Source of the DNA: Candidatus Latescibacterota bacterium
Lineage (GTDB): Bacteria > Latescibacterota > UBA2968 > UBA8231
DNA: 33,197 bases
Reading direction: 5' to 3'
Assembly: GCA_965205655.1 (NCBI GenBank)
Contig: CBDBIJ010000038.1
Coordinates: forward strand, 1-33,197
Both the position numbers and the translations under genes were made by a program. Under the pieces are notes generated by a model, which worked only from the letters and a program-made list of their open reading frames with translations, ran no database searches and was not told where the DNA came from. This document shows positions 1 to 33,197 of this stretch, in pieces; position 1 is the first letter of the stretch, and each line of letters opens with the position of its first letter.

Positions 1-82
1 GCGCCACGATGGGAACCTGCCGCGTCTCGGAAACACAGCCCCAGATCAACAGCCCAGCAAAGAGAGCAAGAGGGAATCTCAT
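1..82 (-). CDS. 5' end of a lipoprotein gene (partial), possibly a SurA/PrsA-like peptidylprolyl isomerase
   Basis: Manual translation from ATG at 82: [27 protein letters not shown], with a lipobox-like IWG-C. It starts 1 nt after the mfd stop. The PPIase guess rests only on the common mfd-PPIase synteny. Confidence 0.6.
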
Positions 83-83
83 T

Positions 84-3000
84 TCAGACGACTTCCCGCA
101 TGATGTTCCTGGCCTTCTCGAGGCGCTCCTGCTCGTCGGTGGCGCGGATGAAGGCCTCGACGACGAGCGCGTCGGCCACCTTGAACTCGAGCTGGGCCGA
201 GCTCTTCTCCACCAGCCGCTGAATATCGGCCGGTGCCGGTTGAACCTCCTCGGGAAAGATCATGCGGAAGCGAGACTTCTCCAATTGCACCGCCGCCAGA
301 CCGAGCTGGCGCGCCATGATCTTGATCTCCATCAGCGCCAAGAGGGATTTCGTCTGATACGGCATACGGCCGAAGCGATCCTCGAGCTCCTCCTGCACGC
401 CGAGCAGCTCGACGAGACGGTGCGCCTCGGCAAGCCGCTGGTAGAACTCCATCTTCAAGTCGGTGTCGGGGACATAGTCGTCGGGGATGTAGGCGGTGAC
501 GGCGATCTTCATCTCCGGTTCGACGACGTGCTCGACCTTTTCTCCTTTCAATTCCCGAACCGCTTCGTCGAGGAGCCGGCAGTAGAGATCGAATCCCACC
601 GCCGTGATATGGCCGTGTTGCTGGGCGCCGATGATGTTGCCGGCGCCACGGATTTCCATATCGCGCATGGCGATGTTGAACCCGGAGCCCAGGTCGGCGA
701 ACTCCTCGATGGCCTGAAGCCGCCGGCGGGACTTTACGCGTCAGGCGCTTGCCCTTGGGCACCAGCAGATAGGCATAGGCCCTTTCCTTGGAGCGCCCCA
801 CTCGACCGCGAATTTGATAGAGCTGGCCCAACCCCAGCATGTCAGCCCGGTTGACGAGAATCGTATTGACCGAGGGTATGTCGATGCCGGACTCGATGAT
901 CATAGTACTGACGAGACAGTCGTACTTCCGTTCCAGAAAGTCGAGCATGATCTTCTCGAGCTGACGCGAGGGCATCTGGCCGTGGGCCACGGCAAAAACG
1001 GGTCGAGGGAAGGAGCTCTTCGAGGTATTCGGCGAGTCGATAGATGGACTGAATCCGGTTGTGGACGAAGTAAACCTGGCCGCCTCGCTGGACCTCCCGG
1101 ACGATAGCCTCGACGATGCGGCCCTCGTCGAAGGCGAAGATCTCGGTGTGGATGGGGAGTCGGTCCTGCGGCGGCGTGTTGATGACGGACATGTCCCGCG
1201 TTCCCATGAGCGACATGTGCAGGGTGCGCGGGATGGGCGTGGCGGTGAGCGTGACGACGTCCACGAGCCGCTTGAGCTGCTTGATCTGCTCCTTGTGGCG
1301 CACGCCGAAGCGCTGTTCCTCGTCGACGATGAGAAGACCGAGGTCGCGGAAGGTCACATCCTTCGATAAAAGGCGGTGGGTGCCGATGAGGATGTCGACT
1401 TTGCCGGCTTTCGTGTCGCGGGCGACGTCCCGTTGTTCCTTGGGGGTGCGGAAGCGGCTGAGGACCTCGATGCGCACTGGCAGGTTGGCCATGCGCTCGG
1501 TGAAGGTCTGGTGGTGCTGCTGAGCCAGAATGGTTGTCGGCACCAGCATCGCGACCTGCTTGTGATCCGCCACGGCCTTGAACGCCGCCCGCACCGCCAC
1601 CTCCGTTTTTCCGTAACCCACGTCGCCGCAGACGAGGCGGTCCATGGGATGAGGGGCCTCCATGTCCTTCTTGACATCCTCGACGGTCCGCAGCTGGTCG
1701 GGCGTCTCTTGAAAGGGGAAGGCCGCTTCGAGCTCGCGCTGCATTGGCGTGTCTTCGGAAAAGCGAGCCCCCGGCAGCGCCTTGCGCGCGGCGTAGAGCT
1801 GGATGAGCTCGCTCGCCATTTTGAAGATCTCCTCCTTCGTGCGCTCCTTGAGCCTCTCCCAGGCGTTCGAACCGAGCTTGTTGAGAATCGGCGGCTCGCT
1901 TTCGGAACTGGAGTATTTGCGCAACCGGTCGAGCTGTTCGACCGGGATAAAGAGCTTGTCTTTACCCTGATAGGTGACTTCGAGGCAGTCGTGATCTCTG
2001 GCCGAGAGCACGAGGCGCCTGATGCCGCGGTAGCGCCCGATGCCATGATCTTCGTGGACGACGAAGTCTCCCACATGAAGAGCCTCGAAGGTGGAGATCG
2101 GTTTTGCCGCCTTGAAACGACGATAGCGGTAGCGCTGCTTCTGGCGGCTGAAGATCTCGTGATCGTTGAACAGGGCGATGGCGGCTTCGGGAAACACGAA
2201 GCCGCCGGTTCAGGGTACCGAGCCCGAAGGAGGCGACGTCGGACCAGTCGCTGAAAATCTCCTCGAGGCGACTGCTCTGACCCTGGGTCTCCGAGAGGAC
2301 GTGGATCTCGTATCCCTCTTCACTCAGCGCCGCGACTTCGTTTCGCAGGATGCCGAGTTCGCCCTGAACGGCCCCGCGGTTCGCGGGCACCGAAGCGGAT
2401 GGCGCCGTCCAACTCGCCAAGGGGGGCTGGCTGAAGCAGCGTATGCTCCGCAAAGTGGGTCCGCAGCCATGCGGCATCCCGCAGCAGGCGTTCGGGCGGC
2501 AGATAGGTACCACGATCGGCGTGGCGTCGATAATCGCGCCTCGAGGGAGCGACCGACTTCTCGATCTCCGCCTCGAGCTCGTCGAGTTCATCGCAGTAGA
2601 GAATCGGGCCATCGAGGTACTCGAATAGCCCTTTGTCGCGTCCGTAGAGGATCGACATGTAGGTCTCGATCCCCTCGAGAGAGGTGCCGAGTTCGATCTG
2701 GTCCTTCAACGCCGCAAGCTCGACCTTCGCTTCGGCCTCGACGGGTTCGATCGCCCGCATGTAGTCTTCGGCTGAATTCGGGGGTGAGGATAACCTCTCG
2801 GGCCGGCAGAATGCAGGCCTCCTCACAGGCGGTGAGCGAGCGCTGCGTGGAGATGTCGAACTGCCGGATCGAGTCGACTTCGTCACCGAAGAACTCGAGG
2901 CGCAGCGGGTGCTCGACGCCCAGGGGATAGATGTCGACGATACCGCCGCGAACGCTGAATTGGCCGATGCCGTCTACCATCGGCACACGCTCGAAGCCGA

Positions 3001-3493
3001 CGTCAACGAAATGAGAGTTCATCCGGTCGAGGCGATGCTCCTGACCGACCCGGCAATGAAAGGTGCCCAGCTCGAGGGCGTGCGGTGGGATGAGGGGCGA
3101 GATCAGGGCCGCAGCCGGAGTCACGACGATGGTGGGGTCGCGGCGGGCGAGTTGGGCCGCCGCCTCGATCCGCAGCCCGGTGATCTCCTGGGACGGCGAC
3201 CGACCTTCATACACGTCCATATCCCAGGCGGGGAAATAGCGCACGATCTCATCGCCGGCGATGGCCTGCAAATCGTCGCGCCACTGTTCGGCGCGGTCTT
3301 CATCGGCGGCGATGACGAGCAGGGGCCGGGGGATGGAGCGCTGAACCTTCGTAAGCAGAAAGGCGGCAAGGGTCGAGGGCAGGGCGTGCAGCAACACCTG
3401 CCGCTCCCCACTGTTCAGGCGGGCGACGATGTCTCTGAAACTCGCCGTCGCGGCCGTCTTGCGGGCGATGTGATCGAGCGACGGAGCGGTCAT
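84..3493 (-). CDS. mfd: Transcription-repair coupling factor Mfd, split by 5 apparent +1 frameshifts (~2772, ~2375, ~2205, ~995, ~730)
   Basis: UvrB-homology [28 protein letters not shown], Walker [37 protein letters not shown] motif [12 protein letters not shown] and the TRCF C-terminal domain are spread collinearly over six ORFs. Confidence 0.95.
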
Positions 3494-3995: not shown

Positions 3996-5242
3996 GGTAT
4001 ATTCAATCGGTCAATGCAACATTCTCCCCACTAATCTAATCATAGGAGATGTTGCACATGGCTCAAATGGGACGACCAGGATTGTCCGCGTCACAGAAGT
4101 TGGAGGTATGGCGTCGATGGAAGAGCGGCCAGTCGCATAGCGATATTGGTCGGGCGCTCGGGAAGCATCCGGCGTCGATTCATGGTGTCATCACCGCCAA
4201 TGGGGGCATCGTACCAATGCCGCGTCGACGCTCTCGATGGGCTCTTGGCTGGGAAGAGCGTGAAGAGATCTCTCGAGGTATCGCTGCGGGAAAATCGATA
4301 CGAATAATTGCGGCCGCTGTTGAGCGTGCACCCTCGACGGTTAGCCGAGAGATTGCCCGCAATGGCGGGCGGCAAAGGTACCGAGCAAACGTCGCCGACC
4401 AAGCAGCCTGGACGCGCGCCAGCCGGCCGAAATGCTGCCGACTCGCATCCAATCTTCGTTTGCGGCGAGTCGTGGCGGACAAGCTACGCCTGAAGTGGTC
4501 ACCTGAGCAGATATCGGGATGGCTGAAGCGGGAGTATGCGCTTTTAGGAAATATGCAGATATCCCACGAAACGATCTATCGAACTCTCTTCATCCAGGCA
4601 CGCGGGGCACTCAACAAGGACCTCATTGCGCATCTGCGGACGCGAAGGATGATGCGGCGATCCAAGAAGGCAAGCACACGCGATCAGCCGAGAGGCCGGA
4701 TCGTCGACGCCGTATCCATCAGCGAGCGGCCTGCCGAGATCGAGGACCGCGCCGTTCCCGGCCACTGGGAGGGAGACTTGATCTCGGGGTCGAACAACAC
4801 GCACATCGCCACGTTGGTGGAGCGGCAGTCTCGGTTCACGATGCTCGTGAAGCTCAACGGCAAAGACACCGAGACCGTTGTCAGAGCGCTGATCAGCCAG
4901 GTGAAACGACTCCCCTCCGCGGTGCGGTTGTCCCTTACCTGGGATCGAGGAATGGAGCTAGCTCGGCACAAGGAGTTCTCGATCGCAACTGACGTCGAGG
5001 TGTATTTCTGTGATCCTCAGAGTCCCTGGCAACGAGGCACAAATGAGAACACGAATCGCCTTCTTCGACAGTACTTCCCGAGGAAGACCGATCTGTCGCT
5101 ATTCTCCCAAGCCGACCTGCACAGAGTCGCTCTTCAACTGAACCAGCGCCCGCGGAAGACGTTGGGGTTCGTTTCACCCGCAGAACGCTTCAATGAAGGT
5201 GTTGCGTTGACGAAGGTGTTGCATTGACTGGTTGAACTCGCG
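3996..5242 (+). mobile_element. IS30-family insertion sequence (~1.25 kb)
   Basis: Imperfect 26-bp terminal inverted repeats GGTATATTCAATCGGTCAATGCAACA (3996-4021) and TGTTGCATTGACTGGTTGAACTCGCG (5217-5242). A 2-bp GC direct repeat flanks it (3994-3995 and 5243-5244). It holds a single transposase. Confidence 0.9.
4058..5227 (+). CDS. IS30-family DDE transposase
   Basis: Two N-terminal HTH segments (RAPSTVSREI), WSPEQIS, ISHETIY, GHWEGDL, TWDRGME and SPWQRGTNENTNRLLRQYFP. AGGAG RBS at 4044; start is ATG 4049 or 4058. Confidence 0.95.
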   Translation: MAQMGRPGLSASQKLEVWRRWKSGQSHSDIGRALGKHPASIHGVITANGGIVPMPRRRSRWALGWEEREEISRGIAAGKSIRIIAAAVERAPSTVSREIARNGGRQRYRANVADQAAWTRASRPKCCRLASNLRLRRVVADKLRLKWSPEQISGWLKREYALLGNMQISHETIYRTLFIQARGALNKDLIAHLRTRRMMRRSKKASTRDQPRGRIVDAVSISERPAEIEDRAVPGHWEGDLISGSNNTHIATLVERQSRFTMLVKLNGKDTETVVRALISQVKRLPSAVRLSLTWDRGMELARHKEFSIATDVEVYFCDPQSPWQRGTNENTNRLLRQYFPRKTDLSLFSQADLHRVALQLNQRPRKTLGFVSPAERFNEGVALTKVLH

Positions 5243-5405: not shown

Positions 5406-7482
5406 GTGCAGCCAACAGAGCGATCTCGATGGACGCCGGGAAACGGCCTGGCGTGGGCGGTGTACGCGGCTGGAATGGCCGTGCTCGCAGCCCTCGTTTT
5501 CGGCGATCTCGGAGATCGCGCCGTCGCCAACTACGATGACTTCCACTACCTGCTTCAGAGCGAGAGGATAAGCGGGGATTTCCTAGCTCTCCTGTCTCCG
5601 GAATACCACGGGCCACGGCCTGTGACCGATCTGGTGTTTTGGCTGGCATTCGAGTTGTGGGGCAAAGAGCCGAAGGGGTACTACGCGCTCACGATCTGCA
5701 TTCACAGCCTGGCGAGTATCTTTCTGGCCATCCTTTGCCAAAGGATTGGATCGAGCCGCGATACTGCCTTTGTTGCCGGCGCCTTCTTCCTGACCACCGT
5801 CGCCCATTTTCGCAATCTGTTCGTCATCTCCGGCCTGGCGTATCCCCTGGCCCTGTCGTTCACTTTTGTGGCAGCCCACTGGTTCACGATTGCCCGACAG
5901 CCAGGTCAATCCAGATGGTACGGTGCCCTCTCCGGGGCCGGCTTGTTGGCAGCTCTATCCCACCCGGCTGCCATAGCTGTCTTTCCGTTCTGTATCTTCG
6001 TCGGCTTCAACAGACGTGACCGTATCAGCGCTATCGTCCCGAGGGTCATCGCCTCCGGCATCGGCGCTGCCGCAGCGATCCTCAGTATGGTCTACTTCTA
6101 TCCGCACAAGATCCAGTCTTACCACTCCGCCCACATACCCGACATCGCACGTATTTCAGAGCACCTTCTGTGGCTCCTGGGTCGACTGCTGGCGACGGCA
6201 CATTGGCTGGCCGCACCAGTCTACGGGTATCAATCCTGGGAACTGGGCCTCGGCCTTGTCGGCCTGGCGGCAATTGCGTTCCTGTTGTTCCAACGAGGAG
6301 CAGCGGCAGCGGAGTGGTCCTTCTGGGTACTCATCATGATGCTGCCGTTCGTCAATCGCCTGCCGACTTCATTCATGCTCGGTGATTCGGGCCCTTCCCA
6401 CTATCTGTATTTTGCCAGCGCTGGCTTTGCCGTCCTGTCGGCCATGCTCTTGCGGGAGGTTGCAATGTTCACTTGCCGACGAGGCGGACCGCGGATCGGC
6501 AGACTGCTGCTCTTCGCGCTGAGCGCCGGGATCGTCGCCTACAGCGCTGCTGCGATAGATGAGTTAGAAGCCTTTTCGTTCCATCGGTCGGGTGAGTTCT
6601 ACCTGCGTCAGCGGGATGAAGACAACGCCGTGCGGCAGCTTTCGCTCGCAGTGGATCGACTCGAATCCGACAAGGTCATTGACGGAGAGCGAGCATACGT
6701 GGCGCTGTGCTATGCCCTCTTGCTAAAAGGCGGGCGGATCGCGCCAACGATGAATGAAGCGCGCCAGAAATATCCGGATAGCTACCGACTCGCCGCCTTG
6801 TCGGGCGCGGTGAATTCGATGAACCCCGACTCCACGGTGCGCCGACGTGGCTCCGAATTGATTCGGCAGGCACAGGAGAGTGCAGACGGTCGAAACCAGG
6901 GCGAGCAGTTCAATGCACAGATGGCAGAGACCTACGAATGCCTCGCCGACGCTCTCAACGGAGAAAGAGACTTTCGGCGTGCAACCGAAGCTGCGAGACG
7001 TTCGCTCGCCTACGGCGAGTCTGCCCGAACCTACTTCGCCCTCGGCAACCGCGCATACACTGCTGGGTGAATACGAGCAAGCAGCTACGGCTCTCGAAAA
7101 CGGAATCTCGCTTGGCCCCAACATCGCGGAACTTCACCACAACCTCGGACACGCATACCGCATGACCGGCGAGTTCGACAAGGCGGAGAAAGCGCTCCAG
7201 AGAGCGACGGAACTGAAGCCACGCGGAGCTGCCTCCTACTACGAACTCGGGCTGGCGCGTTCCCGGCTCGGCGACGACGAGGGCGCCGTCGAGTCTTACA
7301 TGCAAGCAGTGCGATTGGATCCGGTCCACGACAGGGCGCGGTTCGAATTGGCCATGTCTCACGTCCGGCTTGGAGACCCCGGGGCAGCCAGAGCCGAGTA
7401 TGACTCGCTGAGACGAAGCGCCGGCGGGCAAGTCGGGGAACAGCTTCTGCAGGACCTCGAACAGGCTATCGAGGTCGAATAA
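5406..7482 (+). CDS. Multi-TM GT-C/TMTC-like glycosyltransferase with C-terminal TPR repeats (+1 frameshift ~7050)
   Basis: TM1 followed by NYDDFHYL and GPRPV, then about 10 hydrophobic helices. TPR motifs (YFALGN, HHNLGHAY, YYELGLA, RFELAMS) continue in ORF 6880..7482. Confidence 0.7.
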
Positions 7483-28100: not shown

Positions 28101-28433
28101 GAGGCCGAAGGCGCGGGCCATGATCTCATCGAGGGCGGCCGCTTCGGCCTGTCGAATGTCCCGGTCGAGGGACTCGAACTCGTCATTGAGGCGCTCCCTG
28201 TCGTCGGGTTCGAGATCGCCCCGGAGGCGCTCCTCGAGCTCGCCAAACGAGGTCGCGAGGTCGCCGGTCCGCTGGGAGATTTCGGCTTTGAACTCCGCCG
28301 TCTTCGCCACCAGCTCCGCATCGGAGAGGCGCTCGTAGTCCTCCGAAAAGCGGCGGATTTCGCCGATGAGATCGGAGGACCTCTTGAACTCGCGCTCCGA
28401 CTGGGAGCCGAAGATTTTCTTGATGTTCAGCAT
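25125..28433 (-). CDS. secA: Preprotein translocase ATPase SecA
   Basis: EMATGEGKT, DEAD, RTPLIISG, GMTGTA, ATNMAGRGTDI, RIDRQLRGRSGRQGDPG and C-terminal SEC-C CPCGSGKKYKRCC. The true start is MLNIKKIFG at 28433. Confidence 0.98.
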   Translation of the reverse strand: MLNIKKIFGSQSEREFKRSSDLIGEIRRFSEDYERLSDAELVAKTAEFKAEISQRTGDLATSFGELEERLRGDLEPDDRERLNDEFESLDRDIRQAEAAALDEIMARAFGLVRETCRRLVGRSWEGVAGQEEWFMVPYDVQLFGAIVLHQGKIAEMATGEGKTLVATMPLYLNALTGRGCHLITHNNYLAKRDAMWMGATYNSLGLSVGVVQDARQTGGAEAYLLPAQEGVPDDFVWQPATRREAYRADIVYATKDQVGFDYLYDNMATRREDMSLREFNYAIVDEADSNLIDDARTPLIISGPVPESTNRYSEFKPLVEKLLQAQTNLVNKTIAAAEKAHRDDESDTDGVDYDVGIDLLKASRGAPKNKRLMKLLQEEGIKRLISRVEADYMRDKRLNEIDESLYYIVDERAHTIDLTEQGRDLLSPDEQALFILPDLSEKIDAIRKDAALTDDERREQEEEAYRDHAHRTEAVHNINQLMKAYSLFEKDIQYLVTEDKKVVIVDESTGRPQPGRRFADGLHQALEAKEGVKVEQETQTVATITLQNLFRMYHKIAGMTGTAETESHELWEIYKLDVVVVPTHRPVRRVDHEDQIYRTKREKYNAIIEDAAALHELNLPVLVGTVSVEASELLSRMLTRRGIKHQLLNARYHEKEAQVVAEAGQPGAVTIATNMAGRGTDIKLNPEVIHIDRTVVESDVTLDQRASGGTLREELSEHPSGLQVIGTERHEARRIDRQLRGRSGRQGDPGSSRFYLSLEDDLMRLFGSERIASVMDRLGAEEGEVIEHRMVTRSIERAQKKVEARNFDMRKHLLEYDDVMNQQRQVIYNRRRDVLERDSAREQVLEIMEETVDGLMATHIHAEAHPEEWPWEDFAAEVGGTFFTPFPIDVDQRATATPEQVREQVLHCVTEAYEKRLELVGEETFREVEKALLLHTIDTCWQEHLYEMDELKEGVGFVGIGGKNPLIEYKKGAYDMFEQLVDRINQESLRNLLRLRIEAEPPTIEARQQAGRYSSIHREATNLGFRPGAAAESGADRADGLLLGQPGAAQKAPRDRGLVSGGPDGGGEATREPVRVGPKVGRNTPCPCGSGKKYKRCCGRAA

Positions 28434-28435
28434 AG

Positions 28436-29167
28436 CTAGTGGCCGTGTTTCAAACGCTCGGCCAGGAATGGAGGCAGTCCCGCCTCGACGATCTTCGCGG
28501 CGGCGGCATCGATGTCGTACTCCACGCGGACGAACTCCACGGCGTCGTCGCTGTCGTCGTGGAGCGCTACACAGGCGCGCGGATCCCCATCGCGCGGCTG
28601 TCCGACGCTGCCCACATTGACGAGGTAGCGGCTGTTCGGTTCCAGATCGACCCTGCCAGTACCGTCGTCGACGATCTCGGGCCCGGAATCGCCGACTGCG
28701 CAGGCGAACGGGTCGTGGGAGTGACCGACAAAGCAGAGCCTCGTGCTCACCGCCTTCATGGCGGCAACGGCATCCCGAACCGACAGAACGTAGCCCCAAT
28801 CTGCCGGCTCGACTGGCTCTGCATGAACGTAGAAAGCGTCTCCGCTCACGTCGGTCAGGGGAAGGTCGGCGAGGAAACGGCGTTCCTCGCTCGGCATATG
28901 ATCCCTGGTCCAACTCACTGCTTTCCTGGCGTAGTTGTTAAAATAAGTGACATCCTGGAGGCCGGCCACAGCGGCGTCGTGGTTCCCGAGCAGAATCCTG
29001 TTCGTCAAAGAGCGGACGATCGCCAGGCATTCACCAGGATCGGCTCCGTAGCCGACGATATCCCCCAAACAGATCCAGCGATCGACCCGACGGTCCTTGA
29101 CGGTGCGACAAATCGACTCGAGAGCCTCGAGATTGGCGTGGATGTCGGAGAGGATGGCAGTGCGCAT
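28436..29167 (-). CDS. Calcineurin-like metallophosphoesterase (MJ0912/YfcE-like)
   Basis: SDIHAN, GDIVGYG, GNHD, H, GHSH and NVGSVGQPRDGD. Confidence 0.93.
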   Translation of the reverse strand: MRTAILSDIHANLEALESICRTVKDRRVDRWICLGDIVGYGADPGECLAIVRSLTNRILLGNHDAAVAGLQDVTYFNNYARKAVSWTRDHMPSEERRFLADLPLTDVSGDAFYVHAEPVEPADWGYVLSVRDAVAAMKAVSTRLCFVGHSHDPFACAVGDSGPEIVDDGTGRVDLEPNSRYLVNVGSVGQPRDGDPRACVALHDDSDDAVEFVRVEYDIDAAAAKIVEAGLPPFLAERLKHGH

Positions 29168-29186
29168 CCACCTCACGCAGGTCTAA

Positions 29187-29690
29187 TCACGGCTTCTTCT
29201 CGTCGGGGTCTCTTGAGGTCACGACCGCGTCGAGCACGCCGTTGACAAAGGCATAGGATTGCTGGCCGCCGTACGCCTTGGCCAGCTCGACAGCCTCGTC
29301 GATGGTGACGCTCGGTGGGATGTCCGCGAAGTAGAGAATCTCAGTCAGGGCGAGTCGAATGATGATACCGTCGATGCGAGCGATGCGATCCGTGCGCCAG
29401 TGGGCCGCTGTCGAGTCGATGATGGAGTCTAGCTCGACGGCGCGCTCCAGGGCTGTGCGGACGAGCTGCTCGGCGAATTCGTAGGTTAGCCCGGAAACGC
29501 CATGACGACAGGCGAGCTCGGACAGGGCGCTATCGACGTCGCCGGGGGAGCAGGTCTCCCAGTAGAGGGCCTGGACGGCGAGCTGACGGGCCCCTCGCCG
29601 CGTGTTCGGGAGAGCGGGCTCGGCCCACGTGAGCTCCTCGACCTCGAGCTCGCTGTGGCTGCCGGCGGGCTCGGCCTCATCTGTTTCCAT
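29187..29690 (-). CDS. nusB: Transcription antitermination factor NusB
   Basis: RRGARQLAVQALY, W..DRIARID, IDEAVELAK and FVNGVLD. Confidence 0.95.
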   Translation of the reverse strand: METDEAEPAGSHSELEVEELTWAEPALPNTRRGARQLAVQALYWETCSPGDVDSALSELACRHGVSGLTYEFAEQLVRTALERAVELDSIIDSTAAHWRTDRIARIDGIIIRLALTEILYFADIPPSVTIDEAVELAKAYGGQQSYAFVNGVLDAVVTSRDPDEKKP

Positions 29691-29707
29691 GACGAGGATC
29701 AGCCGGG

Positions 29708-30973
29708 TCAGCCGCTCTGCGCTGTGCCGCTCGAGTCGGGGGCGTCGAACAAGGTGACGTGGCCCATCTTGTCCCGCTTCGTTTTCAGGTAGCGGATGTT
29801 GTGGGGGTTGGGCGAGGTGGCGATGGGGACCTGCTCGACGACGGAGAGCCCGTACCCTTCGAGGCCCACTCGTTTCTTCGGGTTGTTGGTCAAGAAGCGC
29901 ACCCGGCGCAAACCGAGATCGTGCAACACCTGGGCTCCGACTCCGTAATCGCGGGCATCGGAGGGAAGGCCGAGGGCGTGGTTGGCCTCGACCGTGTCCA
30001 AACCCCGCTCCTGCTGCAGCTCATAGGCCTTGAGCTTGTGGATGACTCCGATGCCTCGGCCCTCGTGATGCTGGATGTAGACGATGGCGCCCCGTCCCGC
30101 GTCGGCGATCATCTCGAACGAGCGCTCGAGCTGTTCGCCGCAGTCGCACAAGTGGGATCCCAAAGCGTCGCCGGTGACACAGCACGAATGCATGCGCACG
30201 AGGGTATCCTCTCCATCGGTGACGTCGCCCATGACGAGGGCGATGTAGGGATTGCCGTCGACGAGGCTGCGGTAGGCGTAGGCCGTGAAGTCCCCGTACC
30301 GGGTCGGCATCTTCGCCTTCGCCTCGAGTTCAATGAGTTTCTCAGTGCGGCGCCGGTAGGCGATGAGGTCGCGAATGGAGGCGATCTTAAAGCCGTGGCG
30401 TTCGGCAAAGGTGAGCAGGTACGGCGTCGCCGCCAGGCGACCGTCCTCGTCGAGAATGGCGGCGATGAGCGCAACTGGTTGAAAGTCCGCCATCCGCACG
30501 AGGTCGACGGAGGCTTCGGTGTGGCCGGCGCGCTTGAGTACGCCTCCTGGTTGCGCCAGCAGCGGCGTGATGTGGCCGGGCTGAACGAAATCGGCTGCCG
30601 AACTGTGAGGGTCGACGAGCTTCTCGACAGTGAGGGCGCGATCGTGAGCAGAAACGCCGGTGCCTTCGACGTCAGCGGCATTGATAGAGACCATGACCGC
30701 GGCACTTCTTGGTCCGGCTGAGCCTGGAAGCGGGACATCGAGGCCGAGCGCCTCGAGCCGCTCCACGGCGACGGGCGCGTAGAGCGGTCCCCCTGCCTGC
30801 CTGGTCATGAAGTGAATGGCCTCGGAGTCCGCAGCCTGGGCGGCCATAGTGAGTTCGCCCTCTCCGACAAACTCGGTTCCGTCCACATCGACGGCGCGCT
30901 CGTCCACAAGGACGACCTTCTTGCCGGCTTGCAGATCCTCTACGACTTCCTCGACGGTGCTGAAATCAGACAT
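29708..30973 (-). CDS. ribBA: RibBA-type fusion: degenerate DHBP synthase domain plus intact GTP cyclohydrolase II
   Basis: GCH II motifs RMHSCCVTGD...CDCG, EGRGIG, RDYGVGAQ and TNNPKK. The N-domain keeps TGVSAHDRA, PGH and RAGHTE but lacks RENEGD, GLIC and ICEI. Confidence 0.93.
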   Translation of the reverse strand: MSDFSTVEEVVEDLQAGKKVVLVDERAVDVDGTEFVGEGELTMAAQAADSEAIHFMTRQAGGPLYAPVAVERLEALGLDVPLPGSAGPRSAAVMVSINAADVEGTGVSAHDRALTVEKLVDPHSSAADFVQPGHITPLLAQPGGVLKRAGHTEASVDLVRMADFQPVALIAAILDEDGRLAATPYLLTFAERHGFKIASIRDLIAYRRRTEKLIELEAKAKMPTRYGDFTAYAYRSLVDGNPYIALVMGDVTDGEDTLVRMHSCCVTGDALGSHLCDCGEQLERSFEMIADAGRGAIVYIQHHEGRGIGVIHKLKAYELQQERGLDTVEANHALGLPSDARDYGVGAQVLHDLGLRRVRFLTNNPKKRVGLEGYGLSVVEQVPIATSPNPHNIRYLKTKRDKMGHVTLFDAPDSSGTAQSG

Positions 30974-31559
30974 CGGTGCTCAACATGCGCTCGACATAGC
31001 GGGCAATGAGGTCCACTTCGACGTTGACACGGGCCCCCGCGTCAACTTGCGAAAGATTCGTATGTTGTAATGTATGCGGGGTGATAGCGACGGTAAAGGC
31101 AGCGCTGTTCACGTCCACGACCGTGAGTGAAATGCCATTGACGGCGATGGATCCCTTGCTGGCGATGTAGCGTTGCAGGAGTGCCGGAGGCGCTACTTCG
31201 AGGATGGTGCTCTCTCCGTTTCGATCGAAACGCGTCACCTCGCCGACGCCGTCGACATGACCGGTGACGAGGTGTCCCCCGATCCGATCCTCCAGTCTGA
31301 GCGAGCGCTCAAGATTGACGGAATCTCCCGGTTTCCTTTCGCCGAGCGTCGTGCGCGCCAGGGTCTCCTCTACTGACTCCACCACAAAACCACCGGCCGG
31401 CAGCTCCACGACCGTGTGGCAGGCGCCATCGATGTCGATGCTGTCGCCGACGCAGATGCTCTCGAGCACGCGCCGGGCCTCGATCAGCAGTCGTTGGCAG
31501 TCTTTCCCCCTGCGGATGTCGCCCACCCGCCCCACTTCCTCGATCAGTCCTGTGAACAT
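30966..31559 (-). CDS. ribE: Riboflavin synthase (alpha chain)
   Basis: MFTGLIEE, GDSI..GAC, VNLER, GGHLVTGHVDG and KGSIAVNGISLT. Confidence 0.96.
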   Translation of the reverse strand: MFTGLIEEVGRVGDIRRGKDCQRLLIEARRVLESICVGDSIDIDGACHTVVELPAGGFVVESVEETLARTTLGERKPGDSVNLERSLRLEDRIGGHLVTGHVDGVGEVTRFDRNGESTILEVAPPALLQRYIASKGSIAVNGISLTVVDVNSAAFTVAITPHTLQHTNLSQVDAGARVNVEVDLIARYVERMLSTDV

Positions 31560-32648
31560 GCGTACCTCACGTCGGCGGTGTAGAGCAGGTCGTCTCCCAG
31601 GCGCCGGGTGCGGACCTGCTCGAGCGTAACGGCATCGGCCAGCTCCCGCGTGTCGAGCTCGCCGATGGCCGGGATGCCCTCGCCGATGATGCGCGGAGCC
31701 AGGTAGATCATAACCCGATCGACGACCTGGTCCTTCAGGGCCGAGGCCGCGAGCCGGCCACCGCCCTCGACGAGCACGCTGGTCATGCCTCTCCTGCCAG
31801 CCTCGTCCATGACGCTGCGAAGATCGAGGCGACCGTCCTCGTCCGGGAAAGTCCACACCTCGACGCCGGCGTCGAGGAAGTCACCTCTGCGCTGCGGCGG
31901 CGACGACTCGGAGGTGGCCAGGATCGCTCCCGAATGCTGGAACACTCGCGCCTGCGGAGTTAGGCGAAGCCGACCATCCACCACCACGGGCCGCGGGCCG
32001 GGGTGGCGGCTTCCGGAGCCCAGGCGAACAGTCAATTGCGGGTCGTCCACCTCGACGGTGGAGGCACCAACGAAAACGGCGTCGACGCGGCGGCGCCACT
32101 GGTGGACATGTCTTCGCGCCTTTTCGCCGGTGATCCAGCGCGGACTGCCCCCCGCGGGTGGCGATGCGCCCATCCAGACTCTGACCCAGCTTGAGGATGA
32201 CGAGCGGCCGACCGGTGCGGCGATGCTTGAGATAGGGCGCGTTGAGGCGCTCGGCGGAATCCCGCAGCAGTCCCACGTCAACTAGCAACCCCGCCTCTCT
32301 CAGTGTCGAGATTCCGCCACCGCTCACCTCCGGGTCGGGGTCTTCCATGGCACAAACGACGCGGCGTATCCCGGCCTCGATCACGGCATCGGTGCAGGGG
32401 GGTGTGCGGCCCTGATGGGGGCACGGTTCGAGGGTCACGAACATCGTCGCCATCTGGCTCGCCAGACCTGCTGCGGCCAATGCGTGGACTTCGGCGTGAG
32501 GTCCTCCCAGCTGCAGATGGGCTCCCTCCCCGACGACGCGGTCGTCGCTGACGACGACGGCGCCGACAAGTGGGTTCGGGCTCACTCGGCCGAGCCCGCG
32601 GCGCGCGAGACGCAGCGCCCGCCGCATGTGATCACCATCTTGTAGCAT
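31544..32648 (-). CDS. ribD: Bifunctional deaminase/reductase RibD (+1 frameshift ~32140)
   Basis: PNPLVG, HAE, TLEPCPHQGRTPPC and SLDGRIAT, then WITG, DDPQLTVR and VEGG in the next frame. Confidence 0.95.
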
Positions 32649-32699
32649 CGGCCTAACTTACTGTGTCGCAATCCGGTAGGGCTGTATCAGGAAGGGCTG

Positions 32700-32816
32700 A
32701 ATGTAGCTGGAGCAGGCAGAAAAGTCAACTTCCGAGAGCTGTGTTTCCGAGCGGCTTATCCTTTTGTGCACCAAATTGCACGAAGCTTGACACTCGCTTC
32801 GCTAAGACGGTATTCT
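32700..32816. promoter_or_regulatory. Divergent sigma70-type promoters for the rib operon and the exeA-like gene
   Basis: Minus: TTGACT-N17-TACATT (32728-32700). Plus: TTGACA-N18-TATTCT (32787-32816). Confidence 0.65.
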
Positions 32817-32867
32817 TTAAAAGCTTATGCCCATGTTCGACCAACGAACGGGTGGAGTTCTGCCGGC

Positions 32868-33197
32868 ATGTACCAATCCTACTGGGGACTACAGGAAAAG
32901 CCATTCGAGAACACGCCGGATCCGCGATTCTTCTTCCAGGATCCGGATACGAGCGAGGTCTTCACCCGCCTGCTCTATACGCTTCAGAGCAACAGGGGGG
33001 CCGCCCTGCTGACCGGCGGGTCCGGCTGCGGCAAGAGACGCTCGTAACGCGGGCGCTGTTACAGGAGCTCGACCCCGATAAGACGGAAGTCGCGCTGCTG
33101 CCGACACCGAGCCAGACGCCGGACGAGTTTCTGCGCGAGGTCCTCTATGAGCTCGGCGAGGACAGCCGGCCGGAGGATCGCACCCAGGCCGTTCACC
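32868..33197 (+). CDS. ExeA/GspA-like AAA ATPase, 5' part (partial; frameshift ~33036)
   Basis: MYQSYWGLQEKPFENTPDPRFFF and Walker A GGSGCGK. Removing a duplicated AG restores GKTLVTRALLQELD. Confidence 0.85.

Follow-up and report, generated by a model that had tools for sequence, protein, structure and literature searches.

How does a bacterium make riboflavin when its operon has no gene for lumazine synthase (ribH) and the domain expected to supply the four-carbon (C4) unit has lost canonical residues? DHBP synthase (RibB) and lumazine synthase are regarded as obligatory for riboflavin synthesis, and both are antibiotic targets. The question is raised by a 33,197-nt stretch of DNA (hereafter, the window) from Candidatus Latescibacterota bacterium (assembly GCA_965205655.1, contig CBDBIJ010000038.1), for which the initial annotation proposed that the DHBP branch had been lost as one unit. 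A literature search returned nothing on the flavin pathway of this Latescibacterota family.

Deletion of ribH from the riboflavin operon

As first described, the operon lies on the minus strand and reads ribD-ribE-ribBA-nusB, and only 17 nt separate the stop codon of ribBA from the ATG of nusB. TIGR00326 matches both halves of the deaminase/reductase gene ribD (31544..32648), in which one extra base near 32142-32143 produces a 1-base frameshift. This base is absent from all four sequencing runs compared, so it is an assembly error; ribD is intact, and its reading as a pseudogene is ruled out. The riboflavin synthase alpha chain gene ribE (30966..31559) is likewise intact, with an MFTG start and the GGHxVxGHVDG motif, as judged from the family alignment and from matches to NF006767 (226.7 bits; cut-off 155) and TIGR00187 (192.6; cut-off 156.6). 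The ribBA gene (29708..30973) encodes a RibB domain (residues 1-206; 30356..30973) and a GTP cyclohydrolase II (GCH II) domain (29708..30340; TIGR00505 221.5, cut-off 205.85), and it is followed by nusB (29187..29690; TIGR01951 122 bits, cut-off 88.35). The 17-nt spacer (29691..29707) occupies the position at which relatives carry a ribH of about 465 nt.

Mis-assembly of this junction is ruled out by two contigs that bridge it with no ribH in between: one from run X1 (28400-30283, 0 differences) and one from run X4, a separate study (28435-30530, 7 differences). The overlap of run X6 has too few letters on one side and was left uncounted, and no listed X7 piece lies over the junction. In relatives, ribBA ends in xAQSA*, overlapping in another frame the ribH start MPKVHE. 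In the window, the ribH-start frame reads QRRAAD and its ATG is gone. Because the ribBA tail AQSG* (29708..29722) resembles the tails that overlap the ribH start codon, it is likely a small relic of that overlap, and the earlier statement that no remnant survives was probably mistaken.

The absence of ribH itself stands for the operon and for the assembly (150 contigs, 84.3% completeness). A PF00885 (lumazine synthase) search of this genome gave 0 matches, and a family-specific RibH HMM, run in six frames with filters off, gave a best E of only 0.54. All 75 other family genomes carry ribH, which confines the loss to this lineage. It is unlikely that ribH alone lies elsewhere in the unassembled part of the genome. 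Ordinary relocation of both ribH and an intact ribB into the unassembled 16% is less probable still. The incompleteness of the assembly favors such a move, as does the failure to find rarA and the spoU orthologue, neighboring genes in the family, and the intact ribE points to continued lumazine production. However, the ribH match adjoins the ribBA match in every one of the 75 relatives, the slot that would hold a second ribB is empty here on an assembled and bridged contig, and relocation would leave nine near-closed relatives, described below, unexplained.

The RibB domain and its GCH II partner

The RibB domain is recognizable by PF00926 (E 4.8e-57, 193.5 bits), but scores 148.7 on TIGR00506, under its cut-off of 177.45; the full RibBA also falls under the PRK09311 cut-off. 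The canonical DRENEGD register is gone, and the equivalents of Glu38, Cys67, and Glu174 are lost. We take Cys67 and Glu174 to have catalytic roles in DHBP synthase. In place of DDEDRENEGD stands a family-specific acidic loop with a 7-residue insertion (30854..30904; D24-E25-R26...G32-x-E34-x-V-G-E38-G-E40), which is modelled with low confidence (pLDDT <50) at residues 27-34. These changes are found at 37 of 37 aligned family loci and 0 of 13 outgroup loci; Cys67 and Glu174 are each retained at 0/37 family versus 13/13 outgroup loci. Among 111 homologues, Glu174 is missing from all, Cys67 is not among the six commonest residues of its column, and the loop reads x-V-G-E-G-E rather than R-E-N-E-G-D, with Val in 105 at the Glu39 position (V. 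cholerae numbering). Glu39 is the metal ligand, and its mutation abolishes activity (PMC5228156, PMC9305975). The RibB change is thus family-wide and the ribH loss confined to one lineage, which speaks against both the loss of the DHBP branch as one unit and a clade-wide co-loss of ribH and RibB.

The remainder of the phosphate/metal site has been kept. R148 and H151 are invariant in the 111 homologues, T152 and S108 are present in 110, and T105 (94) and H134 (90) are partly relaxed; the canonical counterparts of this site (R150-G-H153-T, the TG(I/V)S..DR loop, and His136) are all present in the window protein. R26, E40, and R89 are retained in 106-107 of the 111; in P0002, the closest sister protein, R89 and N98 are both gone. 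The predicted structure preserves the RibB fold, with a Foldseek E of 8.7e-41 to Mycobacterium tuberculosis (Mtb) RibA2 (PDB 4i14) and TM-scores (by target) of 0.81-0.93 against solved bacterial and fungal DHBP synthases. Its dN/dS is 0.03-0.16, and 0.03-0.14 in seven pairs of genomes that lack a standalone RibB (RibB2). Judged from sequence and predicted fold, the domain is remodelled, not decaying. The initial annotation was right that both the RibB domain and the missing ribH are anomalous at this locus, but purifying selection on the domain makes its description as dead an overstatement.

Sequence identity within the family is 66% for the RibB domain versus 80% for GCH II, compared with 80% versus 78% in the outgroup; inside the family, the RibB domain evolves faster than its partner. 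A search of metagenome contigs for closer relatives returned six loci, none above 48% identity.

The claim that RibA, RibD, and RibE retain their motifs held for ribD, ribE, and the three Zn cysteines of GCH II, which also keeps the equivalents of Tyr105, Asp126, and Arg128, but not for the GCH II Glu53 and Arg64 equivalents, which are lost in 37/37 family rows. The Glu53 position, in the HSEC motif, is C, G, A, S, or T in 111/111 homologues. Two unrelated RibBA matches (P0116 and P0117) are likewise without Glu53.

Several known proteins offer comparisons. The bifunctional Mtb RibA2 (PRK09311) resembles the window protein in domain order, fold, operon position, and GCH II core residues, and differs in the rebuilt loop, the three lost residues, and the model scores noted above. 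Arabidopsis RIBA3, inactive as a DHBP synthase and active as GCH II, demonstrates that a conserved DHBP synthase domain can be inactive (PMC3509567); by sequence pattern it resembles the window protein, likewise a fusion in which DHBP synthase residues have been exchanged and GCH II is intact, although plants retain the bifunctional RIBA1. Finally, RibBX (PDB 6mnz) is also a fusion with one domain stripped of canonical residues, but as a mirror image: it retains DHBP synthase, and the Zn motif is missing from its GCH II-like domain.

Standalone RibB and the source of the C4 unit

RibB2 is present in 49 of 75 relatives. In the other 26 and in this genome, hence in 27 of 76 genomes, the remodelled domain is the sole RibB-family match and there is no second RibB-family gene of the kind that RIBA1 provides in plants. 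The TIGR00506 cut-off is exceeded in one of the 76 family genomes, by a standalone RibB. The suggestion that ribB had moved elsewhere therefore fits the 49 relatives but not this genome, where the RibB2 slot is vacant: the murA or racemase gene abuts dsbD here and in 5/5 near-closed genomes checked, and an X4 contig bridges the vacant slot in this genome. RibB2-less genome pairs span a deep clade (support 100/99), and nine near-closed RibB2-less genomes from five genera (G008, G010, G013, G015, G017, G021, G026, G097, and G099) keep ribH. With a third of the relatives lacking a standard RibB copy, it is likely that the C4 unit is made by undescribed chemistry.

Our tentative best explanation is that the remodelled RibB domain still supplies the C4 unit, and that lumazine in this lineage is formed either without RibH or by a RibH whose gene is missing from the assembly. 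Two events would be involved. In the first, family-wide rebuilding of the domain would have changed the active site while preserving C4 supply; the domain may still turn over ribulose 5-phosphate, with His151, Arg148/Thr152, E34, E38, and E40 assuming the roles of Glu38, Asp42, and Glu174. The standalone RibB of two thirds of the relatives may then be a backup. In the second, later event, ribH was deleted from the operon in this lineage, after which lumazine might arise by uncatalysed condensation or through a RibH copy that the assembly lacks. Lumazine is known to form without a catalyst (PMC12855090), yet mycobacteria require RibH despite this reaction (PMC12240317).

It is also possible, if doubtful, that the RibB domain is a dead sugar-phosphate-binding or structural module like that of RIBA3, and that the C4 unit comes from a non-homologous enzyme of the family. 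The loss of three catalytic residues is consistent with this, as is the apparent non-orthologous replacement of another flavin enzyme in the family (loss of PF06574, gain of a RibL-like gene). A precedent exists in Sinorhizobium meliloti and Brucella abortus, whose ribBA deletions are prototrophic, with an alternative DHBP synthase described as 'yet to be discovered' (PMC9478397). As described there, those organisms likewise have a riboflavin pathway without a recognizable canonical DHBP synthase, but there the loss of ribBA was engineered and the deletion strains were seen to grow, whereas the present gap is a natural one known from genomes, in which a RibB-fold domain remains as a candidate. 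The family RibH is also altered (G84S/K135R), with G84 replaced by S or T in 37/37 family rows versus G in 7/7 outgroup rows. Among 120 RibH matches listed of at least 8000, S84 occurs in 120 and R135 in 119, a tally that is partly circular because the search profile was built from family sequences.

Against a dead module, no candidate enzyme was found in the neighborhoods of the rib operon, the RibB2 slot, or the RibL-like gene. Nor would such a module account for the erosion of the other active-site residues, which is found mainly where RibB2 is present: non-conservative loss at R26, E34, E40, R89, T105, or H134 is seen in 1/18 loci without RibB2, 5/10 with it, and 6/6 short-loop loci, for positions picked post hoc and about three independent events. 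All short-loop genomes (n=26, called by match length) carry RibB2. Under our preferred explanation, the G84S/K135R lumazine synthase may have co-adapted to the new C4 supply. A bolder proposal, which we consider rather unlikely, is that the family uses a different C4 chemistry, in which the rebuilt domain or another enzyme would make a donor suited to the G84S/K135R RibH and reactive enough to have permitted ribH loss here, giving a pathway without canonical DHBP synthase or lumazine synthase.

Another use of the RibB domain would be to feed 1-deoxyxylulose 5-phosphate (DXP) into the MEP pathway, in the manner of E. coli RibB G108S/D113G mutants; RibB mutants yield DXP (PMC3424233). The gene dxs is missing from this genome and from 34/36 family genomes, while dxr is found in 5/5 genomes and HMG-CoA reductase in 0/5. 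Nevertheless, this repurposing is very improbable: five outgroup genomes with dxr and without dxs carry canonical RibB, the G108 equivalent is unaltered in all family rows with D113 as Asp or Glu, and the two dxs-bearing family genomes keep the domain unchanged. An MTA-isoprenoid shunt was also rejected, there being no RuBisCO-like protein in this genome and one in 7/36 family genomes.

The remainder of the flavin pathway

The FAD-synthetase domain of RibF (PF06574) is found in 0/37 family versus 22/24 outgroup genomes, and a RibL-like gene in 31/37 versus 0/24. The candidate in this genome (G000:C46:31776-32168) is a short HxGH nucleotidyltransferase matching PF01467; no family-level RibL model matched it, and its best PDB match, 3glv, is labelled 'lipopolysaccharide core biosynthesis protein'. 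The RibL label is putative, based on sequence likeness and on the complementary distribution with PF06574. The archaeal-type FAD synthase RibL (E. histolytica FADS, PMC11423594) is a comparable short HxGH nucleotidyltransferase in an organism without the bacterial FMNAT domain; here, the gene occurs in a bacterial family that also has a standalone riboflavin kinase. With RibA, RibD, RibE, the retained kinase, and this RibL-like enzyme, the pathway would extend all the way to FMN and FAD.

These genes bear on whether RibB2-less lineages instead salvage riboflavin, lumazine, or a C4 donor from outside, with ribH loss as a first step of decay. Salvage would accord with the ribH deletion in this genome, with the loss of RibH Phe22 in G027, which has no RibB2, and with the retained kinase. 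We regard it as unlikely. In RibB2-less pairs with usable dS (n=7; an eighth was saturated and not counted), ribH (dN/dS 0.04-0.22) and ribE (0.09-0.34) are under purifying selection, as are ribD and GCH II, across a deep clade. The X4 strain is separated from the window by 13 coding differences, of which 7 are synonymous; no stop codon arises among them. In a search covering two of nine transporter families, RibM/PnuC (PF04973) was absent from 5/5 genomes and RibU (PF12822) had nothing over cut-off in 5/5; sub-cut-off PF12822 matches include one thiamine S-component. A scan of 61 genomes found no FMN riboswitch, which rules out this element as a pointer to replacement genes.

F420 was considered as a reason for the retention of ribA and ribD. 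This genome has no CofD and its CofH-like matches are MqnC/MqnE, so F420 does not explain the retention; real or partial CofD-family matches occur in only 3/36 family genomes.

The case made in the initial annotation for pursuing a non-standard route is upheld, and the strongest case for it lies in the near-closed relatives with ribH and without canonical DHBP synthase. Annotation labels such proteins bifunctional RibBA unchecked, and the present result is a warning in that regard. For the family, nine near-closed genomes in five genera have no canonical enzyme but an otherwise retained pathway, and the 49 RibB2-bearing relatives provide a contrast set. Should the RibB domain prove inactive, the search for the missing enzyme can be directed to these genomes.

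ribH and the riboflavin operon

On the minus strand of the window, the riboflavin operon reads ribD, ribE, ribBA and nusB, and, as the initial annotation had described, nusB starts 17 nt after ribBA stops. The lumazine synthase gene, ribH, is missing from the operon as claimed; a PF00885 search of the source genome, G000 (84.3% complete, 150 contigs, the window being contig C38), gave no match with 14/14 controls positive, nor did a profile made from the RibH sequences of 46 relatives and run with filters off. Mis-assembly at this junction was also checked, and among the four sequencing runs aligned, contigs of X1 (0 differences) and X4 (7 differences) bridge ribBA and nusB without ribH, these runs being from separate studies and X1 possibly the source of the window assembly. 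The X4 strain differs in the operon by 7 synonymous and 6 non-synonymous changes and 0 stops. The further statement that no remnant survives fared less well: in many relatives, RibBA ends in xAQSA plus stop and overlaps the ribH start, and the window protein ends in AQSG plus stop with the corresponding ribH ATG missing, a tail that we infer to be the relic of an old, clean ribH deletion.

In relatives, ribH is found in 75/75 other genomes of the family, at completeness down to 58%, with matches that adjoin the ribBA match by coordinates; it is likewise found in 24/24 outgroup genomes, one copy having an internal stop. The suggested co-occurrence of ribH absence with RibB change across the clade is thereby contradicted, the latter being family-wide. 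The window RibBA and its closest relatives (P0121, P0002, P0003 and P0004) form a clade with support of 100/99 that is nested among ribH-bearing genomes, and P0002 and P0121 share the window's tail. The loss of ribH appears to be lineage-specific, the probability that unassembled sequence of G000 holds a copy being low. Lumazine-forming condensation can proceed uncatalysed (PMC12855090), although mycobacteria require RibH despite this (PMC12240317).

One base near 32142 is missing in 4/4 aligned runs, and what looks like a frameshift in ribD is thus an error of the assembly. Small indels relative to the runs occur in ribD and an upstream AAA-type gene (window 32142, 32880 and 33034), and an mfd-like gene (window 82-3493 listed) and the riboflavin kinase gene (G000:C98) appear split; together, these suggest a frameshift-prone assembly whose split genes are not to be taken for pseudogenes. 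The genes 5' of ribD (window 32663-33197) are unlike those of relatives (L097-L104), which have S55-like and Ig-domain genes, and the 5' context of the operon is therefore rearranged. Two 392-aa integrase-core transposase genes (window 4049-5227 and locus L191:11481-12659) look like members of the IS30 family. In a weak ribH match of the outgroup genome G056 (C1:3632537-3632929), an internal stop is seen, and the match is distant from ribBA.

The remodelled RibB domain

Across 37 family loci, the equivalents of Cys67, the Thr93 region and Glu174 are missing in every row, and in 13/13 outgroup loci they are present; the sites are numbered as in E. coli RibB, where Cys67 and Glu174 are taken to be catalytic. 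The loop DDEDRENEGD has become DER-x5-G-x-E-x-VGEGE in the family. In a wider tally of 111 homologues, Glu174 occurs in none, R148 and H151 are invariant, and T152 (110/111), N98 (109/111), E40 and R89 (107/111 each) and R26 (106/111) follow, T105 (94/111) and H134 (90/111) being less strict. In V. cholerae RibB, the metal ligands are Glu39 and His154, and Glu39 mutants are inactive (PMC9305975 and PMC5228156). The predicted structure (pLDDT 83.6 overall, <50 in loop 27-34) has Mtb RibA2 and DHBP synthases as its best matches, and the model indicates that the RibB fold is kept.

Pairwise dN/dS of the domain is 0.03-0.16 (13 usable family pairs; one further pair saturated), and that of outgroup RibB is 0.04-0.10 (3 pairs). 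By these sequence comparisons, the domain is remodelled and maintained across the family, evolving faster than GCH II; "catalytically eroded" thus stands with respect to the lost residues, and "dead" is too strong. The window RibBA, a fusion with the RibBA fold, falls outside DHBP synthase membership on both score and residues and within GCH II membership on score and core residues, so the GCH II motifs were correctly called as kept, save that Glu53 and Arg64 are lost in the family. If the reaction of this altered GCH II ends with the intermediate still formylated, one creatininase-like gene could be a BrbF/ArfB-type formamidase. Creatininase-like matches, by motif only, lie at G000:C60:13989-15107, C137:27062-28162 and C81:48058-48819.

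Standalone RibB and the four-carbon unit

A second RibB-family gene outside the operon, standalone RibB, has DRE(N/D)EGD and Glu174 and lacks Cys67 (His, Leu or Phe there; L048-L064). Among the 75 relatives, 46 have it at full length and 3 have a broken or partial copy; in the other 26 it was not found. Its usual neighbours are dsbD on one side and murA or a mandelate-racemase-family gene on the other. The proposed relocation of ribB therefore suits 49/75 relatives but not G000, where the sole PF00926 match is the N-domain of the window RibBA and the slot, bridged by an X4 contig, is empty, as it is in G008, G010, G013, G015 and G017. Only 1/49 standalone RibBs passes the TIGR00506 cut-off, so their function may differ too. 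Nine genomes of <=10 contigs, from five genera, have the remodelled domain only and still carry ribH, and in the tested pairs lacking standalone RibB, purifying selection acts on ribH (dN/dS 0.04-0.22), ribE (0.09-0.34), ribD and GCH II. The real pathway gap is that of near-closed genomes without a canonical DHBP synthase but with ribH and the rest conserved.

Our leading, still tentative, reading is that riboflavin is still made de novo and that the remodelled domain provides the four-carbon unit; this would require no unseen gene and would explain why standalone RibB is dispensable. It is also consistent with erosion of the remaining site mostly where standalone RibB exists (1/18 loci without it, 5/10 with it and 6/6 short-loop loci, all 26 short-loop genomes having it), a post hoc pattern with about three events behind it. 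Counting against it are the lost catalytic residues and the precedent of AtRIBA3, a conserved yet inactive domain (PMC3509567). The window RibBA is similar to AtRIBA3, with the difference that no canonical copy was found in 27/76 genomes here, and is the mirror image of RibBX. An unknown enzyme ranks next, at distinctly lower probability; S. meliloti and B. abortus are prototrophic without ribBA, and their alternative DHBP synthase was not found (PMC9478397). Salvage is slightly less probable again, with some room left by a transporter check that covered RibM/PnuC and RibU only. No literature on this family's flavin pathway was found in the mostly open-access main texts searched.

The remodelled domain was also considered as a source of DXP, which E. 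coli RibB mutants make (PMC3424233). The family has dxr (G000:C147:2532-3650) and almost no dxs, the latter not being found in G000, 34/36 family genomes and 5/6 genomes of two sister families; HMG-CoA reductase was not found in 5 genomes tested. This candidate is undercut by five outgroup genomes that lack dxs and carry canonical RibB, which uncouple the dxs gap from RibB remodelling. Rhodothermus marinus has the same unexplained gap (PMC11730185).

Other flavin-pathway changes in the family

Changes in RibH, GCH II and RibF coincide with RibB remodelling in the family. In RibH (L019-L047 in relatives), Gly84 is replaced by Ser or Thr in 37/37 family rows and Lys135 by Arg in 36/37, both being retained in 7/7 outgroup rows; Gly84 lines the DHBP-phosphate site. 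The family retains Phe22, His88 and Arg127, except Phe22 in G027. The flavophos preprint names these three as catalytic. The RibF FAD-synthetase domain is absent from 37/37 family genomes and present in 22/24 outgroup genomes, the ribF remnant being a standalone riboflavin kinase that follows truB (G000:C98, about 6800-7200, which is L080; also L076-L079). A 131-residue HxGH nucleotidyltransferase (G000:C46:31776-32168, equal to L191:9777-10172; best PDB match 3glv), found in 31/37 family versus 0/24 outgroup genomes, resembles archaeal RibL in our estimation. The comparison system is the archaeal-type RibL FAD synthase, as described in PMC11423594. A non-orthologous replacement of the FAD synthetase by this RibL-like nucleotidyltransferase is likely and, with the RibF domain missing and the RibL-like gene present, one flavin enzyme has therefore probably already been replaced in this family.
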